Shown one piece after another: positions 13-8,830 of a stretch of DNA of 8,871 bases. The notes under the pieces were generated by a model that made no database searches, had not been told where the DNA came from, and was given only the letters and a program-made list of their open reading frames with translations. The position numbers were made by a program, and so were the translations under genes. Every line of letters starts with the position of its first letter. The first letter of the stretch is position 1. Source of the stretch: a virus (taxonomy: Duplodnaviria > Heunggongvirae > Uroviricota > Caudoviricetes); the IMG/VR virus record IMGVR_UViG_2660238358_000005; one strand, 5' to 3'.

Positions 13-414
13 TTAATTCGTGTACGTGATCTGGTACGTGATTTCCGCCATCGCCCAGGTGGCCATCTCATTATCACGTTGATAGTTAAAACCGAGTGGG
101 ATCATGGTGTCGATGAGTCCGGAAAGCACCGGAATATCCTTCATGGCCGGAAATATGGTGTTCTCCATCCACGTATCCAGCTCAGAATCCGGCGCCTGTG
201 CACGGACGAAAACGGCAATATGCAGAACAGCCTGCCAGTCGTCCTCATCCGTCATTTTTCCGGTGTACTGCGCATCACTCAGCCACACCGCCACGGCGGG
301 CAGTTCCTGCGCATCAATAAATGCCGGAAGCCCGTCAAAAAACGTGGCGCTGTCTCCACACTGTTCCCGAAGGCGTGCCAGCACGCTCTGACGGATTTGT
401 GTGTGTCGGTTCAT
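13..414 (-). CDS. U: Tail terminator protein gpU (lambda U homolog)
   Basis: 133-aa ORF aligns along its length with lambda gpU as I recall it (e.g. ATFFDG, FPAVAV, PDSELD.WME, LTY.ITY motifs). ATG at 414..412 overlaps the Z stop (ATGA overlap). Confidence 0.9.
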   Translation of the reverse strand: MNRHTQIRQSVLARLREQCGDSATFFDGLPAFIDAQELPAVAVWLSDAQYTGKMTDEDDWQAVLHIAVFVRAQAPDSELDTWMENTIFPAMKDIPVLSGLIDTMIPLGFNYQRDNEMATWAMAEITYQITYTN

Positions 415-998
415 TTACTCAGATGTAACCTCAGTTGTTGTTTCAGGGCATACCCCAGCTGTTTCGGCATTTCCGCAGCAATGATGCGGTCGCGGGCATC
501 TTCAAATGCCTGTGTCAGCGGTCCGGACATCGGGATTTTCACCACATCAATGGGGTAACGATTTTTGCCGTCAATACGCCGCATCACATGCCAGCGACCA
601 TTCGCCAGTTGCTGAATAAACGCATCCCGGAAAAGGTATTTCCCCACTTTCAGTACGCTGCCACGATGACGTGAGTTGCTGCCATGCCGGGAGCGGGCCA
701 GTCTGACCTGTGCGGTACCCAGCTTAATGGCGGGCAGGTTACCCCGGTTAACACGCATGCGGGCATACATTTTTCCTGAGGGGCTGGCTTTAAGCAGCCT
801 GACACGCTCCCTGACCGTTTTCAGGGGAATACCTTTCACCTGGTTATCCCCGGCAACGGTATTCTGCGCAACCTGCCGTGTGGCGACAGAAACAATCTTT
901 GCCGCCACACGGTTTACCGCCCATGCGCTGGTCTGTGGCACCATGCGGGTATCGAGGCTGTTCAGATTGCGGATGGCATTCTCAAGTCCCTTCATCAT
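411..998 (-). CDS. Z: Minor tail protein gpZ (lambda Z homolog)
   Basis: 195-aa ORF in the lambda position between FII and U, with size and sequence character matching lambda gpZ (about 192 aa). ATG at 998..996 preceded by GAGG; stop overlaps U start. Confidence 0.85.
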   Translation of the reverse strand: MMKGLENAIRNLNSLDTRMVPQTSAWAVNRVAAKIVSVATRQVAQNTVAGDNQVKGIPLKTVRERVRLLKASPSGKMYARMRVNRGNLPAIKLGTAQVRLARSRHGSNSRHRGSVLKVGKYLFRDAFIQQLANGRWHVMRRIDGKNRYPIDVVKIPMSGPLTQAFEDARDRIIAAEMPKQLGYALKQQLRLHLSK

Positions 999-1359
999 AT
1001 CGCCTCATTCTGGCATTATTCTGTGGGGCAGGACTGCCCCGCCTTAACCGGATATAACAGCATCCCCCGTCATCCGGAGTAATACGATCCACAAAGAAAG
1101 AATCATCCCCGATAGTTAACGTATCCTGACGGCGTAACTGCGATATATCTGCCGTTTTCACAAACAGGCACGGTGAGGAATCCTCAAGCCGGATCCCCCC
1201 GGCAACAAAAGAAATACTTTCGGGATCATCAAAAACCCCTGTCAGGTGTGTCCCCTCAAGTTCTCCGGACGTAATGACGGCGCTGATCCCCATATCACGG
1301 AGAATGACTTCATTGACACCGGCAAGCGCAGCATCAAACAGATTATCGAAACCGTCCAC
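982..1359 (-). CDS. FII: Head-tail joining protein gpFII (lambda FII homolog)
   Basis: Translation MDGFDNLFDAALAG...VFDDPESISF...SSPCLFVKT...LRRQDTLTIGDDSFFVDRITPDDGG matches lambda gpFII (MADFDNLFDAAI...VFDDPENISY...LRRGDTLTIGEENFWVDRVSPDDGG). Start is GTG at 1359..1357 with AGGAG 8 nt upstream; the 3' end overlaps the Z start by 17 nt. Confidence 0.88.
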   Translation of the reverse strand: MDGFDNLFDAALAGVNEVILRDMGISAVITSGELEGTHLTGVFDDPESISFVAGGIRLEDSSPCLFVKTADISQLRRQDTLTIGDDSFFVDRITPDDGGCCYIRLRRGSPAPQNNARMRRYDEGT

Positions 1360-1370
1360 GACATCTCCTG

Positions 1371-1757
1371 TTACTGCCTTTTTGCCAGACCACCTGCCGC
1401 CATGCTGGCAGCCACCTCAGCAGAAACACGAAACGACGTTCCCGGTGAAACAAATATCACTGAACCATTACATTTTGTATGCAGTGTCGCCAGTGCCACC
1501 ACCGTAACCTGCCCCGTTTCGTCTCCGGTAACAATGCCTGGCTGTTCAGGAACTGACTCGCCTTTATGCGCGGTCGGATCATCTTTCGATGGTGAGTACG
1601 TATCCGGCTCTGCGACCTCCCCCGCATCTCCAAGCTCTTCCTCCAGTTCCGCCACTCGCTGCGCAATATCTGCCGCACTACCGGAGACATCCGGTTCACG
1701 CCCCAGCCTCTCAGCCAGCTCACAAAGACGTTTCAGGTTTTCTTCTTTCGTAGCCAT
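1371..1757 (-). CDS. FI: DNA-packaging/head assembly protein gpFI (lambda FI homolog)
   Basis: Homology to lambda gpFI begins at the internal Met (MATKEENLKRLCELAERL vs lambda MTKDELIARLRSLGEQL), followed by an acidic low-complexity linker (ELEEELGDAGEVAEPD). ATG at 1757..1755 has AGGAG 6 nt upstream; the ORF-track start at 1790 lies inside the upstream hairpin and is rejected. Confidence 0.8.
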   Translation of the reverse strand: MATKEENLKRLCELAERLGREPDVSGSAADIAQRVAELEEELGDAGEVAEPDTYSPSKDDPTAHKGESVPEQPGIVTGDETGQVTVVALATLHTKCNGSVIFVSPGTSFRVSAEVAASMAAGGLAKRQ

Positions 1758-1775
1758 ACCCGCTCCTGATTGAAT

Positions 1776-1800
1776 GAAAAACGGGAGCATTTAGCTCCCG
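1776..1800 (-). terminator. Intrinsic-terminator-like stem-loop between E and FI (RNA: CGGGAGC-UAAAU-GCUCCCG followed by UUUUUCAUU)
   Basis: Perfect 7-bp GC-rich inverted repeat (1782..1788 / 1794..1800) with a 5-nt loop, followed on the minus strand by a T5 run (1777..1781); located 9 nt after the E stop codon and just before the FI ribosome-binding site. Confidence 0.45.
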
Positions 1801-1808
1801 CTCACGGA

Positions 1809-2837
1809 TTATTTCACCTGCACCACCACAAACTCATCCGGATCCGGCAGCACCATCAGCGGCGCGGACTGCGTCATGGTGAATTCACGCGCCGGATCAC
1901 CCACGGTCAGCCAGTGTTTCGGATAACGGGAAGACGCCACCACGCCTTCAGACAATGCCTGCGCATCCTGAATGGCACCGTAGCAACGAATACCCTCTGC
2001 GGCCGTATTTCCCAGTACCAGTGTGCCGTCCGGCAGATAACGTTTTTCGGTACCGTCCTCTGCCACATAGGACGTTTTTGCCACCACGATTGCCAGATCA
2101 CCATAATACCCTTTGAAGGACACCACCGCCCCCAGGTCTTTCACTGCCGTTTCCAGCTGTGAATTTGAGCCACGACGGGTATCCAGTTTTTCGCGGAACA
2201 GCTTAAAGCCATTCAGCAGACGCCAGACCTTACCATCCATAATGGCAATATTGATGGTGCCGGAAGCAAAATCACAGTACGCATCCAGATCATGCGTCGG
2301 ATCAAAGGTATCGCGGTCCTGAGCGCTCCACTCCGTCCCTCCTGCCTGCGTAATGTTATTTCCCACCGACCGGCCAAAATCGACCTCAACAGTTTCAAAC
2401 TGCTCTCCTTCCATGGTGTATTTGCCATACAGCACGGCATTCACCGCCTGCATCTCTTCCACCTGGACAATGGCGTGCTCTTCCTGTTTGAGGTTATCGG
2501 TGATGATACGCAGGCGACGGTAAGCCGGGCCGTTCAGCTGGGCCGGATCTTCACCGGGAAGACGCTCCACCGCCTGCTGGTAATTAAATTCGTGTTTCGG
2601 CTTAACGTAGCCCGGGCGCAGTACACGAGTTTCACCGCCACGGTGACGCAACACCTTTCCTTCAACAACCGGGGAGACATAGGCCGCCACCGGCGTTTTT
2701 CCGGTAATTTTGTCCAGCATTACCTCTTCGGTATGGAAATTCACCGTACGGCGGAAAAACAGCTCCAGAAACAGCGCACGAAATTTAACTTTTTGTTCGG
2801 TATAACCGAGTAACTGGCGGGTCGTAAACAATCCCAT
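1809..2837 (-). CDS. E: Major capsid protein gpE (lambda E homolog)
   Basis: 342-aa ORF collinear with lambda gpE (341 aa): PGYVKPKHE, QVEEMQAVNAVLYGKYTMEGE, NNITQAGGTEWS, KLDTRRGSNSQLETAVKDLG, MVLGNT, TGDPAREFTMTQSAPLMVLPDPDEFV. ATG at 2837..2835 with AAGGA upstream. Confidence 0.95.
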   Translation of the reverse strand: MGLFTTRQLLGYTEQKVKFRALFLELFFRRTVNFHTEEVMLDKITGKTPVAAYVSPVVEGKVLRHRGGETRVLRPGYVKPKHEFNYQQAVERLPGEDPAQLNGPAYRRLRIITDNLKQEEHAIVQVEEMQAVNAVLYGKYTMEGEQFETVEVDFGRSVGNNITQAGGTEWSAQDRDTFDPTHDLDAYCDFASGTINIAIMDGKVWRLLNGFKLFREKLDTRRGSNSQLETAVKDLGAVVSFKGYYGDLAIVVAKTSYVAEDGTEKRYLPDGTLVLGNTAAEGIRCYGAIQDAQALSEGVVASSRYPKHWLTVGDPAREFTMTQSAPLMVLPDPDEFVVVQVK

Positions 2838-2894: not shown

Positions 2895-3242
2895 TTACGG
2901 CAGCGCTGCGTGACTCAGGGCACTGCCGGCAAAGGCATTCGCCTTTTTGTGTGTATCCACTCTCTCAGGCCAGTGGATGGCCTCCGTCGCAAAGGTCCCC
3001 GACTTGTAATACGTCAGCACCGTCTCTGTACCTTCAAGCGGCAGTACCAGTATGCCAACCACATGGCCTGCCTTCTGTCCGTCCCAGACCACCAGTTTCC
3101 CGGTATCCTCATCCAGCATCAGGGGCGTCAGAGCCGGTGTTGCCGAGGAAATCCCGCTGCAGCCTGTGGCGGTATGGGCCGGATCATTACCGGCAAAAAT
3201 ACGTACTTCCGCACGCTGTTCAGTGATGGTTTTCGTTACCAT
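2895..3242 (-). CDS. D: Head decoration protein gpD (lambda D homolog)
   Basis: 115-aa ORF; DPAHTAT, TPLMLD, KLVVWDG, VGIL, FYKSGTF and KKANAFAG motifs match lambda gpD (110 aa). ATG at 3242..3240. Confidence 0.9.
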   Translation of the reverse strand: MVTKTITEQRAEVRIFAGNDPAHTATGCSGISSATPALTPLMLDEDTGKLVVWDGQKAGHVVGILVLPLEGTETVLTYYKSGTFATEAIHWPERVDTHKKANAFAGSALSHAALP

Positions 3243-3278
3243 ATTGTAAAAACCTCATATTGATGGTCAGCACTGACT

Positions 3279-4151
3279 TCATGGCATGGCCATGAGCATT
3301 TTCACGTCCGCATCACCGTCTGCTGACGTCTGTGGCACGCCACCCTGTACCGCTGCCGGTGAATGGTTCGCCATGAAATGTTCAAACATGGCGGGTGTGG
3401 GTGGAGGAAAACGGTNNNNNNNNNNNNNNNNNNNNNNNNNNNNNNNNNNNNNNNNNNNNNNNNNNNNNNNNNNNNNNNNNNNNNNNNNNNNNNNNNNNNN
3501 NNNNNGGGCATTCTCCACGGTCATCCCCGGACAGGCCGCCAGTTTTTCAGCCTGCGCCTCTGCCCCTTTTGCCTCATCCAGGGCCATAATCTGATCACGA
3601 AGTGAGGGTCCGGCATTCGCCTGCGGTGAAGCAGCCAGAATCGGACGGGCTTTTTCCACCGTCATCTCCGGCATCGCCGCCAGCGTTGCCGCCAGTTGTT
3701 CACGTCCTTTCGCCTCTTCACATGCCATAATGCGATCGGCTTCACTCTGCGCAGATACACCAGATTGTTGCGGTGCCGCCACGGCCAGAATCGCCCGGGC
3801 CTGCTCAACGCTCATACCCTGTTGCCCTGCCAGCATCGTGGCCAGTTGTTCACGTCCTTTCGCTTCCTGACACGTCAGGATCCCCATCACTCGCTGGTTC
3901 TCCTGCGCGGCAGCCTCCGTTGCAGTTAATTGCGGCATAGTGCCTCCTGTATCGTGTGTGTTCAGCGTCGCAGCCATCACGCTGATGGCGTCCGACGCAT
4001 TGATTAATTCATCCGCCAGTTCGGCCTCAATACCGGACTGACCTTCAAAAACGGCGGCCTCTGTTCCCATAACCGCATCCACAGATAAACCGGTATACAT
4101 CGCCACTTTTTCAGCAAACATCCGGCGCGCCGCATCAATGCGCTGCTGCAT
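3279..4151 (-). CDS. nu3: Putative nested scaffolding protein (lambda Nu3-like), in-frame internal start within C
   Basis: Inference from lambda, where Nu3 is translated in the C frame from an internal Met near the RIDA..RQMFAQKV region. Here in-frame Met codons occur at 4151..4149 and 4121..4119 in the homologous stretch (QDMQQRIDAARRMFAEKV). Neither has a strong Shine-Dalgarno, so the exact start is uncertain. Confidence 0.3.
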   Translation of the reverse strand: MQQRIDAARRMFAEKVAMYTGLSVDAVMGTEAAVFEGQSGIEAELADELINASDAISVMAATLNTHDTGGTMPQLTATEAAAQENQRVMGILTCQEAKGREQLATMLAGQQGMSVEQARAILAVAAPQQSGVSAQSEADRIMACEEAKGREQLAATLAAMPEMTVEKARPILAASPQANAGPSLRDQIMALDEAKGAEAQAEKLAACPGMTVENAXXXXXXXXXXXXXXXXXXXXXXXXXXXXXXXRFPPPTPAMFEHFMANHSPAAVQGGVPQTSADGDADVKMLMAMP

Positions 4152-4841
4152 GTCCTGGCGAACCTTTGCTGGCAGGGATTCAAACTGATTGCCATCCACC
4201 TTGTGCGATCCGGCGTAAATCAGCGTGATATCCACACCGGCCTGTGCCAGATGACCGGCATAGCTGACATGGCCCATCATCACCCCAATGGAGCCGATAC
4301 GGGATGTCTGGGTAACCAGCCGTCGGGAGCAGGCCGATGCCAGTAACATGGCGGCTGAACAGGCCGTGTCATTGCACAGTGCCCAGACAGGCTTCAGCTG
4401 CCGGAGACGGTAAATCATGTCAGCGCAGTCAAACGCGCCGGTGGCCTGCCCGCCAGAACTGTCAATGTCCAGCAGTACGCCCCGTACCTGAGTGTCCGCC
4501 ATTGCCTGCTGAAGACAGGCGACAATGCCGTCATAGCCAGTCATTCCGGAAAATGGCCGCATGCCACCCAGCCGGTGTACCAGCGTGCCGGTCACCGGCA
4601 GTACAGCAATACCGTTCACCACCCGGTAAACACGGGCAGGTCGTTTGCCTCCGGCCATGTACTCGTCCGTTTCAGCCAGCATCCCGGGAGCGTCAAGCTG
4701 TACCTGCTGTTGCGGTACCGAAAGGCTTGCTGCGCCCATCTCACGCCCGAGCGCGCAAAAGAAAACCCGCGCATAGGCGGGCTCCAGAAGCAGCGGCTCA
4801 TTGAATGCCGCAGCGATAATATGTGAAAGATTACGTCTCAC
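3279..4841 (-). CDS. C: Capsid assembly protease / minor capsid protein gpC (lambda C homolog, S49 peptidase-like); interrupted by an assembly gap so true length is unknown
   Basis: N-terminal two-thirds aligns with lambda gpC (AFNEPLLLEPAYARVFFCAL, NGIAVLPVTGTLV, SGMTGYDGI, GAFDCAD, KPVWAL, SRRLVTQTSRIGSIGVMM, ITLIYAGSHKVDGN, YTGLSV, TEAAVF, ADELINASDAI). Start is GTG at 4841..4839 with GAGGAG upstream, overlapping the end of B. The ORF runs through 90 N (3416..3505), so the C-terminal part and total length are unreliable. Confidence 0.85.
   Translation of the reverse strand: MRRNLSHIIAAAFNEPLLLEPAYARVFFCALGREMGAASLSVPQQQVQLDAPGMLAETDEYMAGGKRPARVYRVVNGIAVLPVTGTLVHRLGGMRPFSGMTGYDGIVACLQQAMADTQVRGVLLDIDSSGGQATGAFDCADMIYRLRQLKPVWALCNDTACSAAMLLASACSRRLVTQTSRIGSIGVMMGHVSYAGHLAQAGVDITLIYAGSHKVDGNQFESLPAKVRQDMQQRIDAARRMFAEKVAMYTGLSVDAVMGTEAAVFEGQSGIEAELADELINASDAISVMAATLNTHDTGGTMPQLTATEAAAQENQRVMGILTCQEAKGREQLATMLAGQQGMSVEQARAILAVAAPQQSGVSAQSEADRIMACEEAKGREQLAATLAAMPEMTVEKARPILAASPQANAGPSLRDQIMALDEAKGAEAQAEKLAACPGMTVENAXXXXXXXXXXXXXXXXXXXXXXXXXXXXXXXRFPPPTPAMFEHFMANHSPAAVQGGVPQTSADGDADVKMLMAMP
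3416..3505. other. Assembly gap: run of 90 N
   Basis: Directly visible in the sequence. It lies inside the C/Nu3 reading frame and abuts the tandem repeat region. Confidence 0.99.
3507..3890 (-). repeat. Tandem, diverged ~150-nt (50-aa) repeats, at least 3 copies, inside the C/Nu3 coding region
   Basis: Protein repeats IMGILTCQEAKGREQLATMLAGQQGMSVEQARAILAVAAPQ / IMACEEAKGREQLAATLAAMPEMTVEKARPILAASPQ / IMALDEAKGAEAQAEKLAACPGMTVENA...; at DNA level a 23-nt identical block occurs at 3691..3713 and 3841..3863, with related sequence about 150 nt earlier near 3538..3560. Confidence 0.8.
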
Positions 4842-6424
4842 GTGATGTTGTCTCCTCTTCCGGCCTGCGACTCTCCGCTATCTGCTGCTGATACGCCTGG
4901 GCTATCCACACCGGACGTGAGAGTCCGGCTTTTTCGCGCTCTGCGGATTCCCTGACCTGCTGGCGGAAAATGTCCTGATAATCTTCGCCCATCAGTGCCA
5001 GTTCTTTCTCATACGTGCTCAGTCCGGCCTCAATGCGCATCACCGATTCCTGGACCTCCTTGAGCCCGTCAATGGCCATTCTTCCGGAGCTAATCCACTC
5101 TGCCCGTGACCAGGCTGAACGCGCCTGGTAAAAATCAAAACGCGCCCGTGGCGGACGAATAATCCCCCGAAGAAGCGCCTCTTCCAGCCAGCAGGAAAAC
5201 ATCTGCGTGGCCAGCCGGGCCGCAATAAATTTTCGCCGCCCCATAAAATAGCGCCACGACTCATTGGCGGAGGCGCGGGCACTTGAGTAACTGACCTTCG
5301 AGTAATCACGGGACAACTGTTCGTAGGAAACGCCAAGACCGGCTGCAATATACCGCAGCAGCGCCTGTTCAAGCGCCGAAAATCCATTGTCTGAATCCTG
5401 CGCTGTCTGCAGGTTCAGCGCATCGCCAGGAAAAAAGGTGCGGAATTTTAACACCGCCCAGCGTCACGTTATTCGTGTCATACCAGCGGGTGAACTTCTC
5501 CAGAATATTAATAAGCGGATTATCCTGCTGACCTTGCGGTGCCCCCGCGATATATTCAAATGCCTTTTCGGTATCAAGTTCACTTTCGATTGTGGCTGCA
5601 TACATCGCCTTCACAATGGCCGACTGAAGCTGCGTGGCCTGCAGGGAGTCCAGCATCTTCATCCGCTCCATTACGCTGTAAAACTGATTAGCCCCACGGG
5701 TCTGCCCGTCCTCCACCGGCTCAAAAATATGCAGCATGGCCGGACGCCCGGTGGGAAGCTCACGCGGGATCCGCTCCCAGCGTCCGGCACCAGAGAACGG
5801 AAAATCATCCTCACAGATATGGTACGCAATCGCCCGCCCATACCGATCGACCTCAACCCCGGCCCGCAGAAAGTGGTTCCCCATACCGTGTCCTGGCGTG
5901 TCCACCCGTTTCGGACTCACGGCTTTAAAACGCGTACGGAATAACTGCGTGGTTTCCGTATCCCAGACCGGCTGCACAAAGATTTCGCCGTTAAAGGCAT
6001 GCACGCCCACCCCTTCACGGATAAATTCCGTAAACGTGCGTTTCCCTTCCACGTCGATCTCGCCAAACATTCCTTCTGCGTATTCCGACCAGGCTGCTTC
6101 CACCTCCCCGACAAAACTTTTTGCCGTGGTCTCCCGCATCCCCAGCCAACGCCAGTTCAGACGGTAGCTGATAAGAAACATGTGCCCGACGATATGATCC
6201 TTATGCAGGGCCACCGCATTAGCCGCGATACCGTTATTGCGCACCAGATCATCTGCCCGGGCATTCCCCAGACGCAATGCAGGCAACAGGGCCGCATCGG
6301 CACTCTGCGCCGGTGGTAACCACTCTGCCATTTGCCCGCCAAATCCTGCGCCGCCTCCGTTGTAGCTGAGACTCTCACGAAGCGGAACGCCGTTCACATC
6401 AATCAGGACAGGCGTTCGTTTCAT
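4831..6424 (-). pseudogene. B: Portal protein gpB (lambda B homolog), reading frame broken by a +1 frameshift in a homopolymer (pseudogene or sequencing error)
   Basis: The 351-aa ORF (6424..5369) matches the lambda gpB N-terminal two-thirds (GNARADDLVRNNG, KRTFT, REGV, HAFNGE, VSPKR, PVEDGQTRGAN.FYSVME.MKMLD.LQ.TQLQSAIVKAMYAATIESELDT) and the 207-aa ORF (5454..4831) matches the C-terminal third (PGDALNLQTAQDSDNG, LLRYIAAGLGVSYEQLSR, ARASANESW.YFMGRRKF, GRMAIDGLKEVQE, EAGLSTYEKE). The frames switch within the A6 run at 5431..5436; removing one base restores HLFPGDALNL, matching lambda HLMPGDSLNL. ATG at 6424..6422 overlaps the W stop. Confidence 0.85.
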
Positions 6425-6624
6425 AACCTCACTCCCAGCGGTCGGCGGCGTCGGGTCGTACCCAGAACCGACTCCGCATCGTTGATCGCACGGTTAAGCT
6501 CATTCAGGGACGCTGCCGTATATTCGATCCTGCGACCGTCTTTCTGTACCGACACAACCCGTTTACCGGTTAATAAATCAAGGCGCGCCTGACGCAGCGC
6601 CTGCAGTTCAGCGACTGTAACCAT
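6421..6624 (-). CDS. W: Head-tail joining / head completion protein gpW (lambda W homolog)
   Basis: 67-aa ORF; LLTGKRVVSVQKDGRRIEYTAASLNEL matches lambda gpW ([27 protein letters not shown]). ATG at 6624..6622 directly follows the A stop (TGAATG). Confidence 0.9.
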   Translation of the reverse strand: MVTVAELQALRQARLDLLTGKRVVSVQKDGRRIEYTAASLNELNRAINDAESVLGTTRRRRPLGVRL

Positions 6625-8535
6625 TCACTCCTCCGGACAGCTTCGCTGCCAGTTCTTCAAGGGTCGGTTGTGCAGTTGCATCCTTGCGGGATGCAACTGC
6701 ACAGCCAGATCAAGTTGCCAGCGTTGCACGGACACACGTAATGCCGCATAGGCATACACCAGGCAGTCCAGCGCTTCGTTACGCCGCTTTTTGTTATCCC
6801 ACAACAGACGCATCTTTCCTTTTTCCCACTTTTCCACCAGTTCCTCCGCCACCAGTTGTTGTGCCTCTGTCTGCGAAAAAATCTCCGGATTATCAGGAAA
6901 GCGGATGGCATACGATGTGGCCTCATTCACAGGGGTGGGATCGGCCTTCATTCGGGCATAGAGAATTTCTTTTGCGGTATCCGTCCCCACCTCACACAGA
7001 TACACACCCCGCTGATTGCGGGTTTTCGGCATGGTGATCACCGGCTTGCCATAGACAGAGGCACCTTTTACCGGCAGTACCCGGAAAATACCGTGTTTTT
7101 TTGACCTCTGATACACGATTTCGCCATCGATCCCCCCGATATCCCAGCAGACACGGGAAATGGTCATTTCGGTACCGTCTGCATGGCGGTATTTTTTATT
7201 GATCGCCGCATCCACACGTAACAGCGTCTCTTCCTCATCAGGACGTCCCATGATGATGATTTTATCCACCAGAAAGGCTTCCTCTCCCGGAGCCCACCCC
7301 CAGACATACATCTCAAAACGGTTTCGCTGCGAGTCAATGCCCGCCGTCAGATAAACCACCCGGACAGGCACCGTTGCCGTGTAAGGCACAACCTTATCCA
7401 TCAGTACCTGGTGATCGAGTTTTTCGCCCACGGCCTCTTCCCAGGTCTCGCCCAGCGTGGTGTTCACAAAAGTTTTCACGCCGTTGGGATCTTTCAGTGC
7501 ATCCAGCCAGTCACAGACTATCTGTACCCTGGTGGTGAACGGACTGTACGCCGTCCATATATGGAAAGTGATGGAGCGCGGCGGCGGAATTTCATTACCC
7601 GAAGCACTGAAAAACGTCAGACCGTCACACGTCCACATCCCGGTATTGTCACAAATCCAGCGCCCCCCGGTCTGATCAAGTTCAGACTGACGGATCACGC
7701 AGCCATTATGTTCACACAGGTAATACACCGTTTCCGGTTTACCCTTCTCCCATTTCAGGCCAAACGACGTCGCATCATCGCCAAACTTCAGATACTGCTC
7801 CTCCCCGCAATGAGGGCAAGGGACATAAAACCGCATGAAATGCGCAGATTCATTCGCAGCTTTTTCAATCTGACAGGAGCCTTTAATTTTTGGCGTTGAA
7901 CCGCGTATGGATTTTGGCCATACCGAACCTTCAATACGTTTATCGCCAAGCAGTGTTGGCGAACCTTCTTTTTCCACATCCGGTTCAAACGAGGAGAGTT
8001 CGTCATAGCAGACCACATCGACAGATTTTTCACGGTAGTTTTTGGCAGCAGCACCACCCAAACACCAGAACCCCACACCAGAGGAAAAACGCTTCAGTGT
8101 GAGCGTATTATCCCGGTGTTTCCGGCCCAGCCAGGGAGAAAGTTTTTTCAGGCAAGGAACATCACGAATTGTTGCTTCCACGTGAGACTTCATAAAATCT
8201 TCAGCAGCTGAGTCCGTCGGCTGAAAAAGAAGAGTGTTGCGGGATTTGTGCTCAATAAAATACCCGATCACACCAAGCACCATTTTTGTATAACCAACAC
8301 GGGCAGATTTAATCAGGTTAACTGTACGAATCTCGTCATTGCCCATGCAGTTCATGATGGCGACCTGAAACTGCAGCGTTTTCCATTCCCCCTCACCGTA
8401 TGACGATTCTTTAGGCAGGTAATAATTTTGATCGGCCCATTCTACAGCCGTCACCGGCAATACCCTGACCAGTGGCTGCAGTGCGATAGTGACTGCCACC
8501 ATCATATTACTCAGTTGTTGTTCTGATATATTCAT
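6625..8535 (-). CDS. A: Terminase large subunit gpA (lambda A homolog)
   Basis: Collinear homology over the full length with lambda gpA: TAVEWAD.NYYLPKES, VKSARVGY.KM.LGV..YFIEHK.RNTL, RDNTLT.KRF, GFWCLGG.AAKNYREKSVDV, GSPT.LGDKRIEGSVWPKSIRGSTPK, CPHCGEEQYLKFGD, HIWTAYSPFTT, TFVNTTLGETWE, YLTAGIDSQ, SKKHG.FRV.P.KGASVYGKPV, TEAQQL.AEE.VEKW, KKRRNEALDC. Start set at ATG 8535..8533 (MNISEQQ, as lambda MNISNSQ), not the TTG at 8592 used by the ORF track. Confidence 0.95.
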   Translation of the reverse strand: MNISEQQLSNMMVAVTIALQPLVRVLPVTAVEWADQNYYLPKESSYGEGEWKTLQFQVAIMNCMGNDEIRTVNLIKSARVGYTKMVLGVIGYFIEHKSRNTLLFQPTDSAAEDFMKSHVEATIRDVPCLKKLSPWLGRKHRDNTLTLKRFSSGVGFWCLGGAAAKNYREKSVDVVCYDELSSFEPDVEKEGSPTLLGDKRIEGSVWPKSIRGSTPKIKGSCQIEKAANESAHFMRFYVPCPHCGEEQYLKFGDDATSFGLKWEKGKPETVYYLCEHNGCVIRQSELDQTGGRWICDNTGMWTCDGLTFFSASGNEIPPPRSITFHIWTAYSPFTTRVQIVCDWLDALKDPNGVKTFVNTTLGETWEEAVGEKLDHQVLMDKVVPYTATVPVRVVYLTAGIDSQRNRFEMYVWGWAPGEEAFLVDKIIIMGRPDEEETLLRVDAAINKKYRHADGTEMTISRVCWDIGGIDGEIVYQRSKKHGIFRVLPVKGASVYGKPVITMPKTRNQRGVYLCEVGTDTAKEILYARMKADPTPVNEATSYAIRFPDNPEIFSQTEAQQLVAEELVEKWEKGKMRLLWDNKKRRNEALDCLVYAYAALRVSVQRWQLDLAVQLHPARMQLHNRPLKNWQRSCPEE

Positions 8536-8830
8536 CGAGTAAATCCGGTAATTTATCCCCCGCACGCGCGCACTGATTCGCTCCCTTAGCAATAAGGATT
8601 TTCAGATGATCAATATGACGCGGCGTTAAATCCGGGAACTGTCGTTGCATGGACAAAGGAATGGAGTCAAGCGTACTGGATAAAGCCATCGCCAGCTTAC
8701 TAAGGGCAAAAATACAAAATCCGGTATCGATAAGATTTCCTTTTGACACCTGATTTTTTAACTGCTGTGCGACAGCCTGTTCTGCGGTCAGTTCCCATCT
8801 GGCAATGAGTAGTTTGAGGTGTACTGGCAA
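8507..8830 (-). CDS. nu1: Terminase small subunit gpNu1, C-terminal portion only (roughly the last 100 residues by homology); 5' end unresolved and possibly disrupted
   Basis: GFCIFALSKLA...LDSIPLSMQRQFPDLTPRHIDHLK...LPDLLDEYI matches the lambda gpNu1 C-terminal region (AFCTFVLSRIA...LDGLPLSVQRRFPELENRHVDFLK...IPGLLSEYI). The 3' end overlaps the A start by 29 nt, as in lambda. The ORF-track start at 8830 is a TTG; an in-frame TAG lies at 8842..8840. Confidence 0.75.
   Translation of the reverse strand: MPVHLKLLIARWELTAEQAVAQQLKNQVSKGNLIDTGFCIFALSKLAMALSSTLDSIPLSMQRQFPDLTPRHIDHLKILIAKGANQCARAGDKLPDLLDEYIRTTTE

Follow-up and report, generated by a model that had tools for sequence, protein, structure and literature searches.

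Why should the scaffold-coding part of a phage head gene carry three tandem copies of one small module, where phage lambda has a single copy? The question is raised by an 8,871-nucleotide (nt) stretch of the virus record IMGVR_UViG_2660238358_000005 (Caudoviricetes), hereafter the window, in which the original prediction described a three-fold tandem repeat at positions 3507–3890. The repeat lies in the homologue of gene 5 of coliphage 21, an S49 prohead protease gene whose 3′ part contains, in frame, the homologue of the scaffold gene 6. It is already known, being annotated in the phage 21 record M81255.1, and we consider it very probable that the window carries this Tri-box triplication of coliphage 21 genes 5 and 6, a reading which includes the proposal, set out below, that the three units would make the scaffold a trivalent docking protein.

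Three units and the Tri boxes of phage 21

The relevant features of the gene are as follows, with amino acid (aa) positions counted in the gene 5 homologue:

3279..4841, minus strand: gene 5 homologue, analogue of lambda C, S49 prohead protease whose C-terminal region is the scaffold (open-reading frame (ORF), Pfam, alignments)
3279..3938, minus strand: gene 6 homologue, analogue of lambda Nu3, predicted scaffolding protein, in frame and nested (equivalent Met annotated in M81255.1 and OL657228.1)
3943..3948, minus strand: AGGAGG, predicted ribosome-binding site located 4 nt upstream of the internal ATG (sequence; phage 21 records carry a ribosome-binding site annotation in the equivalent position)
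3768..3893, minus strand: unit 1, equivalent of the Tri1 box, aa 317–358, RVMGILTCQEAKGREQLATMLAGQQGMSVEQARAILAVAAPQ (unit comparison; predicted three-helix module with a predicted local distance difference test score (pLDDT) of about 80–85)
3621..3734, minus strand: unit 2, equivalent of the Tri box, aa 370–407, RIMACEEAKGREQLAATLAAMPEMTVEKARPILAASPQ (unit comparison, structure prediction)
3507..3593, minus strand: unit 3, equivalent of the Tri3 box, visible aa 417–445, QIMALDEAKGAEAQAEKLAACPGMTVENA... (unit comparison; the last helix enters a run of N)

Local alignments of the units with one another gave BLOSUM62 scores of 57–107, against means of 21–24 for shuffled sequences (standard deviation about 4.5; z = 8.4–17.5), and a DNA repeat search recovered a 94 nt pair sharing 73% identity at a spacing of exactly 150 nt. 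With such scores and a constant core spacing, the three-fold repeat first described from the sequence is real. The module is 38–42 aa long and a full unit 3 would span aa 417–~454. Start-to-start, the units are spaced at 159 and 141 nt around a core register of 150 nt, because unit 1 carries a 3 aa N-terminal extension. The 23 nt DNA block reported as identical between two of the units (3691–3713 and 3841–3863) proved exact and occurs nowhere else in the window, whilst ~1.5 × 10−8 such pairs would be expected by chance. Tandem Repeats Finder reported no repeat in window positions 3200–4900, because the unit copies are too diverged.

A megablast search of the gene against a phage collection recovered phage 21 at 92.5% identity, and in GenBank record M81255.1, which covers the head operon of that phage, gene 6 bears three repeat_region annotations: “Tri1 box”, “Tri box” and “Tri3 box”. 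These translate to QEAKGREQLATMLAGQQGMSVEQARAILAAAAPQ, IMVCEEANGREQLAATLAAMPEMTVEKARPILAASPQ and IMALDEAKGAEAQAEQLAACPGMTVESARAVLAAGSGK, which are exactly the three units, and the units of the window are colinear with them; the repeat sits, as predicted, in the C-terminal, Nu3-equivalent part of the gpC homologue. The record is said to be the head-gene sequence of Smith & Feiss (Gene, 1993). Coliphage 21 and the window have in common the gene itself, its position in the head operon, the predicted nested internal start and the three colinear units, with 91% aa identity to phage 21 gp5 over a colinear alignment. They differ in allelic changes only, which are concentrated in the scaffold third; the 23 nt block shared by units 1 and 2 of the window is missing in phage 21, and unit 3 of the window is cut by the N-run.

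The protease assignment is provided by a Pfam Peptidase_S49 match (PF01343) at aa 147–292 of the gene 5 homologue (E = 3.5 × 10−33; 115 bits against a cutoff of 24.9), and SppA structures match aa 77–290 of the phage 21 protein (E = 4 × 10−16). The gene 5 homologue has 520 codons when the N-run is read through as X, finished relatives encode 501 aa, and the product shares 93% aa identity with the protein of a prophage in Escherichia coli FDAARGOS_943. Within the gene, AGGAGG, a strong Shine-Dalgarno sequence, is followed by ATG at 3948–3936 on the minus strand (ATG at 3936–3938), and two phage 21 records place the start of gene 6 at the corresponding Met. The window contains ...ACAGGAGGCACTATGCCGCAA... 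at this start region and the predicted gene 6 homologue product begins MPQLTATEAAAQ. Use of this in-frame start would give a separate 200 aa scaffolding protein consisting almost wholly of the three modules and a C-terminal tail.

A survey of 5426 complete E. coli genomes found matches to the gene in 2032 and at least 80% of the gene in 1865 (about 34%), with a median of two and a maximum of six places per genome. When matches were sampled at even intervals along the ranking, nearly all full-length ones, O157:H7 and ST131 strains among them, had a gene span of 1506 nt. The original prediction had regarded the repeat as an unusual length variant of a head-assembly protein, whereas it is the canonical phage 21 gp5/gp6 form, found in roughly one complete E. 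coli genome in three: the lambdoid head protease/scaffold gene has the Tri-box triplication in its standard phage-21-type allele, which has been in GenBank since the early 1990s. Among phage records, the whole three-unit scaffold was covered in 20 of 117 matches (phage 21, ev017, Lambda_4C10, D2 and the PhiR series). The match spans about one unit (153 nt) in lambda, 434, HK630 and the Stx1a-converting phages; it is shorter in N15 and falls into two separated pieces in phi80 and HK225.

Beyond these close relatives the module occurs widely among S49 prohead protease/scaffold proteins, usually in single copy, and stands outside the curated domain libraries: scans with Pfam and NCBIfam found no model that covers it. 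A unit profile (A3) built from 17 units (window region 3507–3893) and searched against 1.84 billion representative proteins (50% identity) matched 1201 of them at E ≤ 0.001. Amongst the best 150 of these 1201, one copy was present in 136 proteins, two in about 10 and three in 3. Copy numbers were drawn from this representative library together with the E. coli and phage BLAST surveys, contig-end fragments being unsuitable for the purpose alone. The proteins which carry the module are either 420–550 aa long, with the unit near the C-terminus, or 120–200 aa long, and the PHROG families which the module matches are those labelled head scaffolding protein, capsid assembly protein and head maturation protease. 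The same 38 aa module is found in gene 5/gene 6 of N15, in 434 and HK630, in the stand-alone phrog_8399 “head scaffolding protein” and in many S49 prohead proteases; in these relatives it occurs once each, towards the C-terminal end of a protease-scaffold fusion or within a scaffold of ~120–200 aa, unlike the three copies described here.

Lambda itself is the most instructive comparison. The unit profile matched lambda gpC (NC_001416) once, at aa 363–400, with no second match even at a very permissive threshold, in agreement with the statement in the original prediction that lambda gpC/Nu3 has one copy of the motif. Lambda C/Nu3 shares with the window the S49 protease domain, a scaffold whose coding sequence lies in frame in the 3′ portion of the protease gene, the same neighbours and the module, which is 63% identical to unit 1. 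It differs in having one module instead of three, in an extra ~36 aa upstream of the module and in an overall identity of 56% between gpC and the gene 5 homologue. Lambda Nu3 starts at gpC aa 239, inside the protease domain, whereas phage 21 gp6 starts at gp5 aa 302, yet the two scaffolds are nearly equal in length (201 aa for lambda Nu3, L005 833–1438, versus 200 aa for phage 21 gp6). This equality holds despite their composition: the phage-21-type scaffold is made of three modules, whilst Nu3 is made of one module, part of the protease domain and the ~36 aa linker.

The N-run and the age of the triplication

Could the repeat have arisen in assembly, or could more than three true copies have been collapsed into, or hidden by, the N-run which cuts unit 3? 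Two features bear on this:

3416..3505, no strand: run of 90 N, an assembly gap or mask (sequence)
3390..3415, no strand: gap-edge bases, about 25 nt, with one indel and about 5 mismatches against every finished relative (alignments)

The neighbourhood is certainly of draft quality, with the 90 N, the error-laden gap-edge bases and a homopolymer frameshift in the portal gene (described below) all close by, and a four-unit variant exists elsewhere in E. coli (P0026). The gap-edge differences turn ...EPVSASTTAMF into ...RFPPPTPAMF, and the best match to this region among the 5426 complete E. coli genomes reached 93.4% over 76 nt. The gap edge is thus probably low-quality contig-end sequence, and the apparent reading frame through the gap is therefore unreliable. 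Most database homologues of 3279–3938 are likewise labelled partial and lie at contig ends. Together with the several gene copies per E. coli genome, this indicates that the locus often breaks short-read assemblies, which may explain the N-run.

Against this, phage 21 as sequenced by the Sanger method shows the same three units, as do about 1865 complete genomes in which the gene keeps a constant length of 1506 nt, so that an origin of the repeat by mis-assembly, which the original prediction had allowed for, is ruled out. The longest exact match between units, 23 nt, is too short for assembly collapse, and the four-unit variant has clearly different unit sequences. The gap itself is shorter than one 150 nt unit. 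The nearest relative is E. coli O121 201805972, which agrees with the window at 100% on either side of the gap once the ~25 gap-edge bases are set aside. Where the window has 90 N, this relative has 34 nt encoding ...RAVLAAASGRAE..., the end of unit 3 and a linker; phage 21 and FDAARGOS_943 agree with O121 on the gap content. As 90 N is less than one unit and O121 has only 34 nt there, the N-run would hide the end of unit 3 and is very unlikely to hide the further copies that had been suspected in it. We therefore give very little credence to an artefact or to collapsed copies, and the window itself showed no expansion, mis-assembly or hidden copies.

The known triplication is also, judging from its divergence, old and kept at the protein level. 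The three units of phage 21 share 82%, 71% and 68% identity with the units at the same positions in a Salmonella homologue (P0030), whilst units within one protein share 54–61%. Between units, codon positions 1 and 2 are 65–78% identical and position 3 is 31–50% identical, near saturation. It is this orthology by position between E. coli and Salmonella prophages, and the saturated third positions, which point to an old event maintained as protein. The origin would be an ancient in-frame tandem triplication of a 38–42 aa module which is single-copy in lambda C/Nu3.

The same codon pattern bears on a different explanation, in which the periodicity reflects an antisense element at the DNA level, for instance repeated regulator sites such as CII-type TTGYN6TTGY boxes or a recombination substrate, and not a protein module. 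Two pattern-matched CII boxes are annotated antisense within gene 6 in OL657228.1, the window shows both (TTGYN6TTGY at 3686–3699 and 3920–3933 on the plus strand), and the 23 nt block is identical in units 1 and 2. However, the two boxes compare with 1.77 expected by chance, the conservation lies in codon positions 1 and 2, and the module is kept as protein across 1201 clusters. The 23 nt block is limited to the lineage of the window: the longest identical run there in phage 21 is 8 nt, with several synonymous-site differences between units 1 and 2 in the codons concerned, and the block may be a short gene-conversion tract between the two units. An Rfam scan of the window matched no family. 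We consider a DNA-level element extremely unlikely and retain the Tri-box triplication as a repeat of a protein module.

Copy number nevertheless varies in a few relatives, although the proteins concerned (P0022, P0016, P0026 and P0132) are mostly partial and at contig ends, and some could have been produced by assembly. P0022, with two units, looks like a crossover fusion of unit 1 and unit 2, P0016 has two units after an internal deletion, and P0026 (E. coli) has four units which are 79–89% identical to each other, for which reason the expansion is taken as recent. In P0132, a distant S49 protein, the duplication is independent. The two- and four-copy alleles are rare and look like products of unequal crossover. 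Natural alleles with one, two, three and four copies would provide a ready series for the study of scaffold valency in lambdoid procapsid assembly.

Predicted fold and proposed function of the module

AlphaFold2 modelled phage 21 gp6 (as P0002, an identical protein) as three similar three-helix units with a pLDDT of about 78–82, joined by linkers with a pLDDT of 50–65, at a predicted template modelling score (pTM) of 0.28; a single unit was predicted with a pLDDT of 84.6 and a pTM of 0.59. Given the low linker pLDDT and the low overall pTM, the modules are predicted to be independent, compact three-helix beads on flexible Pro/Gln/Ala/Ser linkers. The unit includes a K-G-R-E loop which is nearly invariant. 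A fold search of BFVD returned the same module only, in other phage S49 proteases (template modelling score 0.87–0.91, root-mean-square deviation about 1 Å), whilst fold searches of the PDB gave no significant match and a PDB sequence search with the unit profile gave chance-level matches only (E at least 0.4).

Three independent sub-threshold signals suggest that each unit might be a helix-hairpin-helix (HhH)-like nucleic-acid-binding module, for example one sensing or contacting incoming DNA, instead of a scaffold module which binds capsid or portal. The Pfam HHH model (PF00633) gave a weak hint on unit 3 (E = 0.02, 15.2 bits), RuvA was among the top Foldseek PDB matches though not significant, and NusA C-terminal repeat chains appeared at E of about 0.9 in the PDB profile search. 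The unit consensus LAxxPGMTVEQAxxIL also resembles the HhH signature, hxxhxGhxxxxAxxIh. The Pfam score falls short of its gathering threshold of 24 bits, however, and unit 3 was its only match; these hints from Pfam HHH, RuvA and NusA were not counted as evidence of HhH identity. The units are net acidic to neutral, not basic, and the genetic context and PHROG annotations indicate scaffold and protease functions. An HhH-like role is accordingly rated very improbable, and the docking function included in the Tri-box reading is the one followed here.

In lambda, the head assembly initiator consists of C, Nu3 and B (the protein of the portal), with C as the protease (PMC3224144; PMC12617516), and the reported partners of Nu3 are B, C, E and Nu3 itself, with a two-hybrid assay behind the interaction with E (PMC3224144). 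The module of the window would most likely dock both proteins, protease and scaffold, in the nascent procapsid, because it is shared by the two and is the most conserved part of such scaffolds across more than 1000 protein clusters. It would do so as an interaction element, through contacts with the major capsid protein (gp7 in phage 21, analogue of E), with the portal (gp4) or with itself. Having three copies would render the phage 21 gp6 scaffold trivalent, and the protease would clear the scaffold away once assembly is complete, as described for lambda (PMC3224144; PMC12617516). By functional analogy only, P22 gp8 and phi29 gp7 are similar in that a small helical element of a flexible scaffold docks to the inner procapsid surface (PMC9965877, PMC3185693); in P22, a C-terminal helix-turn-helix of the scaffold binds the N-arm of the coat protein (PMC9965877). 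Profile and fold searches detected no sequence or fold relationship between these two scaffolds and the units, which moreover have three helices and are repeated, whereas neither P22 gp8 nor phi29 gp7 is nested in a protease gene.

Several points weigh against this reading. The Tri boxes are labelled “function unknown; putative” in M81255.1, and the unit profile matched no PDB chain by sequence. Use of the internal start is predicted from annotation and sequence and, if the length of the N-run is arbitrary, this particular strain could have an extra unit, although nothing points to one.

A broader version of the proposal, which we put forward tentatively and regard as unlikely though possible, is that the module is an uncurated, widespread procapsid-docking element of S49-type protease/scaffold systems whose copy number tunes valency, the scaffold being held at ~200 aa as the internal start moves. 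The copy numbers in such a scheme would be one in lambda, three in phage 21 and its Salmonella relatives and rarely two or four, with an independent duplication in a distant lineage.

The surrounding head-gene block

Pfam matches on all neighbouring ORFs give the gene order A-W-B-C/Nu3-D-E-FI-FII-Z-U on the minus strand, and by this gene content the window is the head-gene block of a phage-21-type lambdoid prophage. As in a lambda-type head operon, the gene 5 homologue is flanked by the portal gene on one side and, on the other, by the genes for the decoration and major capsid proteins. The neighbours, all assigned by Pfam, are:

6625–8592, minus strand: terminase large subunit (GpA terminase)
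6421–6624, minus strand: gpW
5369–6424 and 4831–5454, minus strand: portal protein (Phage_portal_2), in two ORFs
2895–3242, minus strand: decoration protein (HDPD)
1809–2837, minus strand: major capsid protein (Phage_cap_E)
1371–1790, minus strand: FI (Packaging_FI)
982–1359, minus strand: FII-like protein (Phage_attach)
13–414, minus strand: U (Phage_tail_U)

Minor_tail_Z was found between Phage_attach and Phage_tail_U. The portal gene (4831–6424, minus strand) is broken into two overlapping ORFs of 351 and 207 aa because of one extra T in a T5 homopolymer (window 5431–5436); the gene is otherwise 99.8% identical to that of E. coli FDAARGOS_943. The extra T may be a sequencing error in the homopolymer, or else the frameshift is real and inactivates the gene in a defective prophage; it is this base, together with the gap-edge errors, which marks the window as draft-quality sequence. 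In the FDAARGOS_943 prophage (L002 7424–8963) the FII-like head-tail joining gene is annotated as frameshifted, and an ISEc60 (IS4-like) transposase gene lies directly downstream of it, before the next tail gene; owing to these two features, that prophage is itself probably defective.
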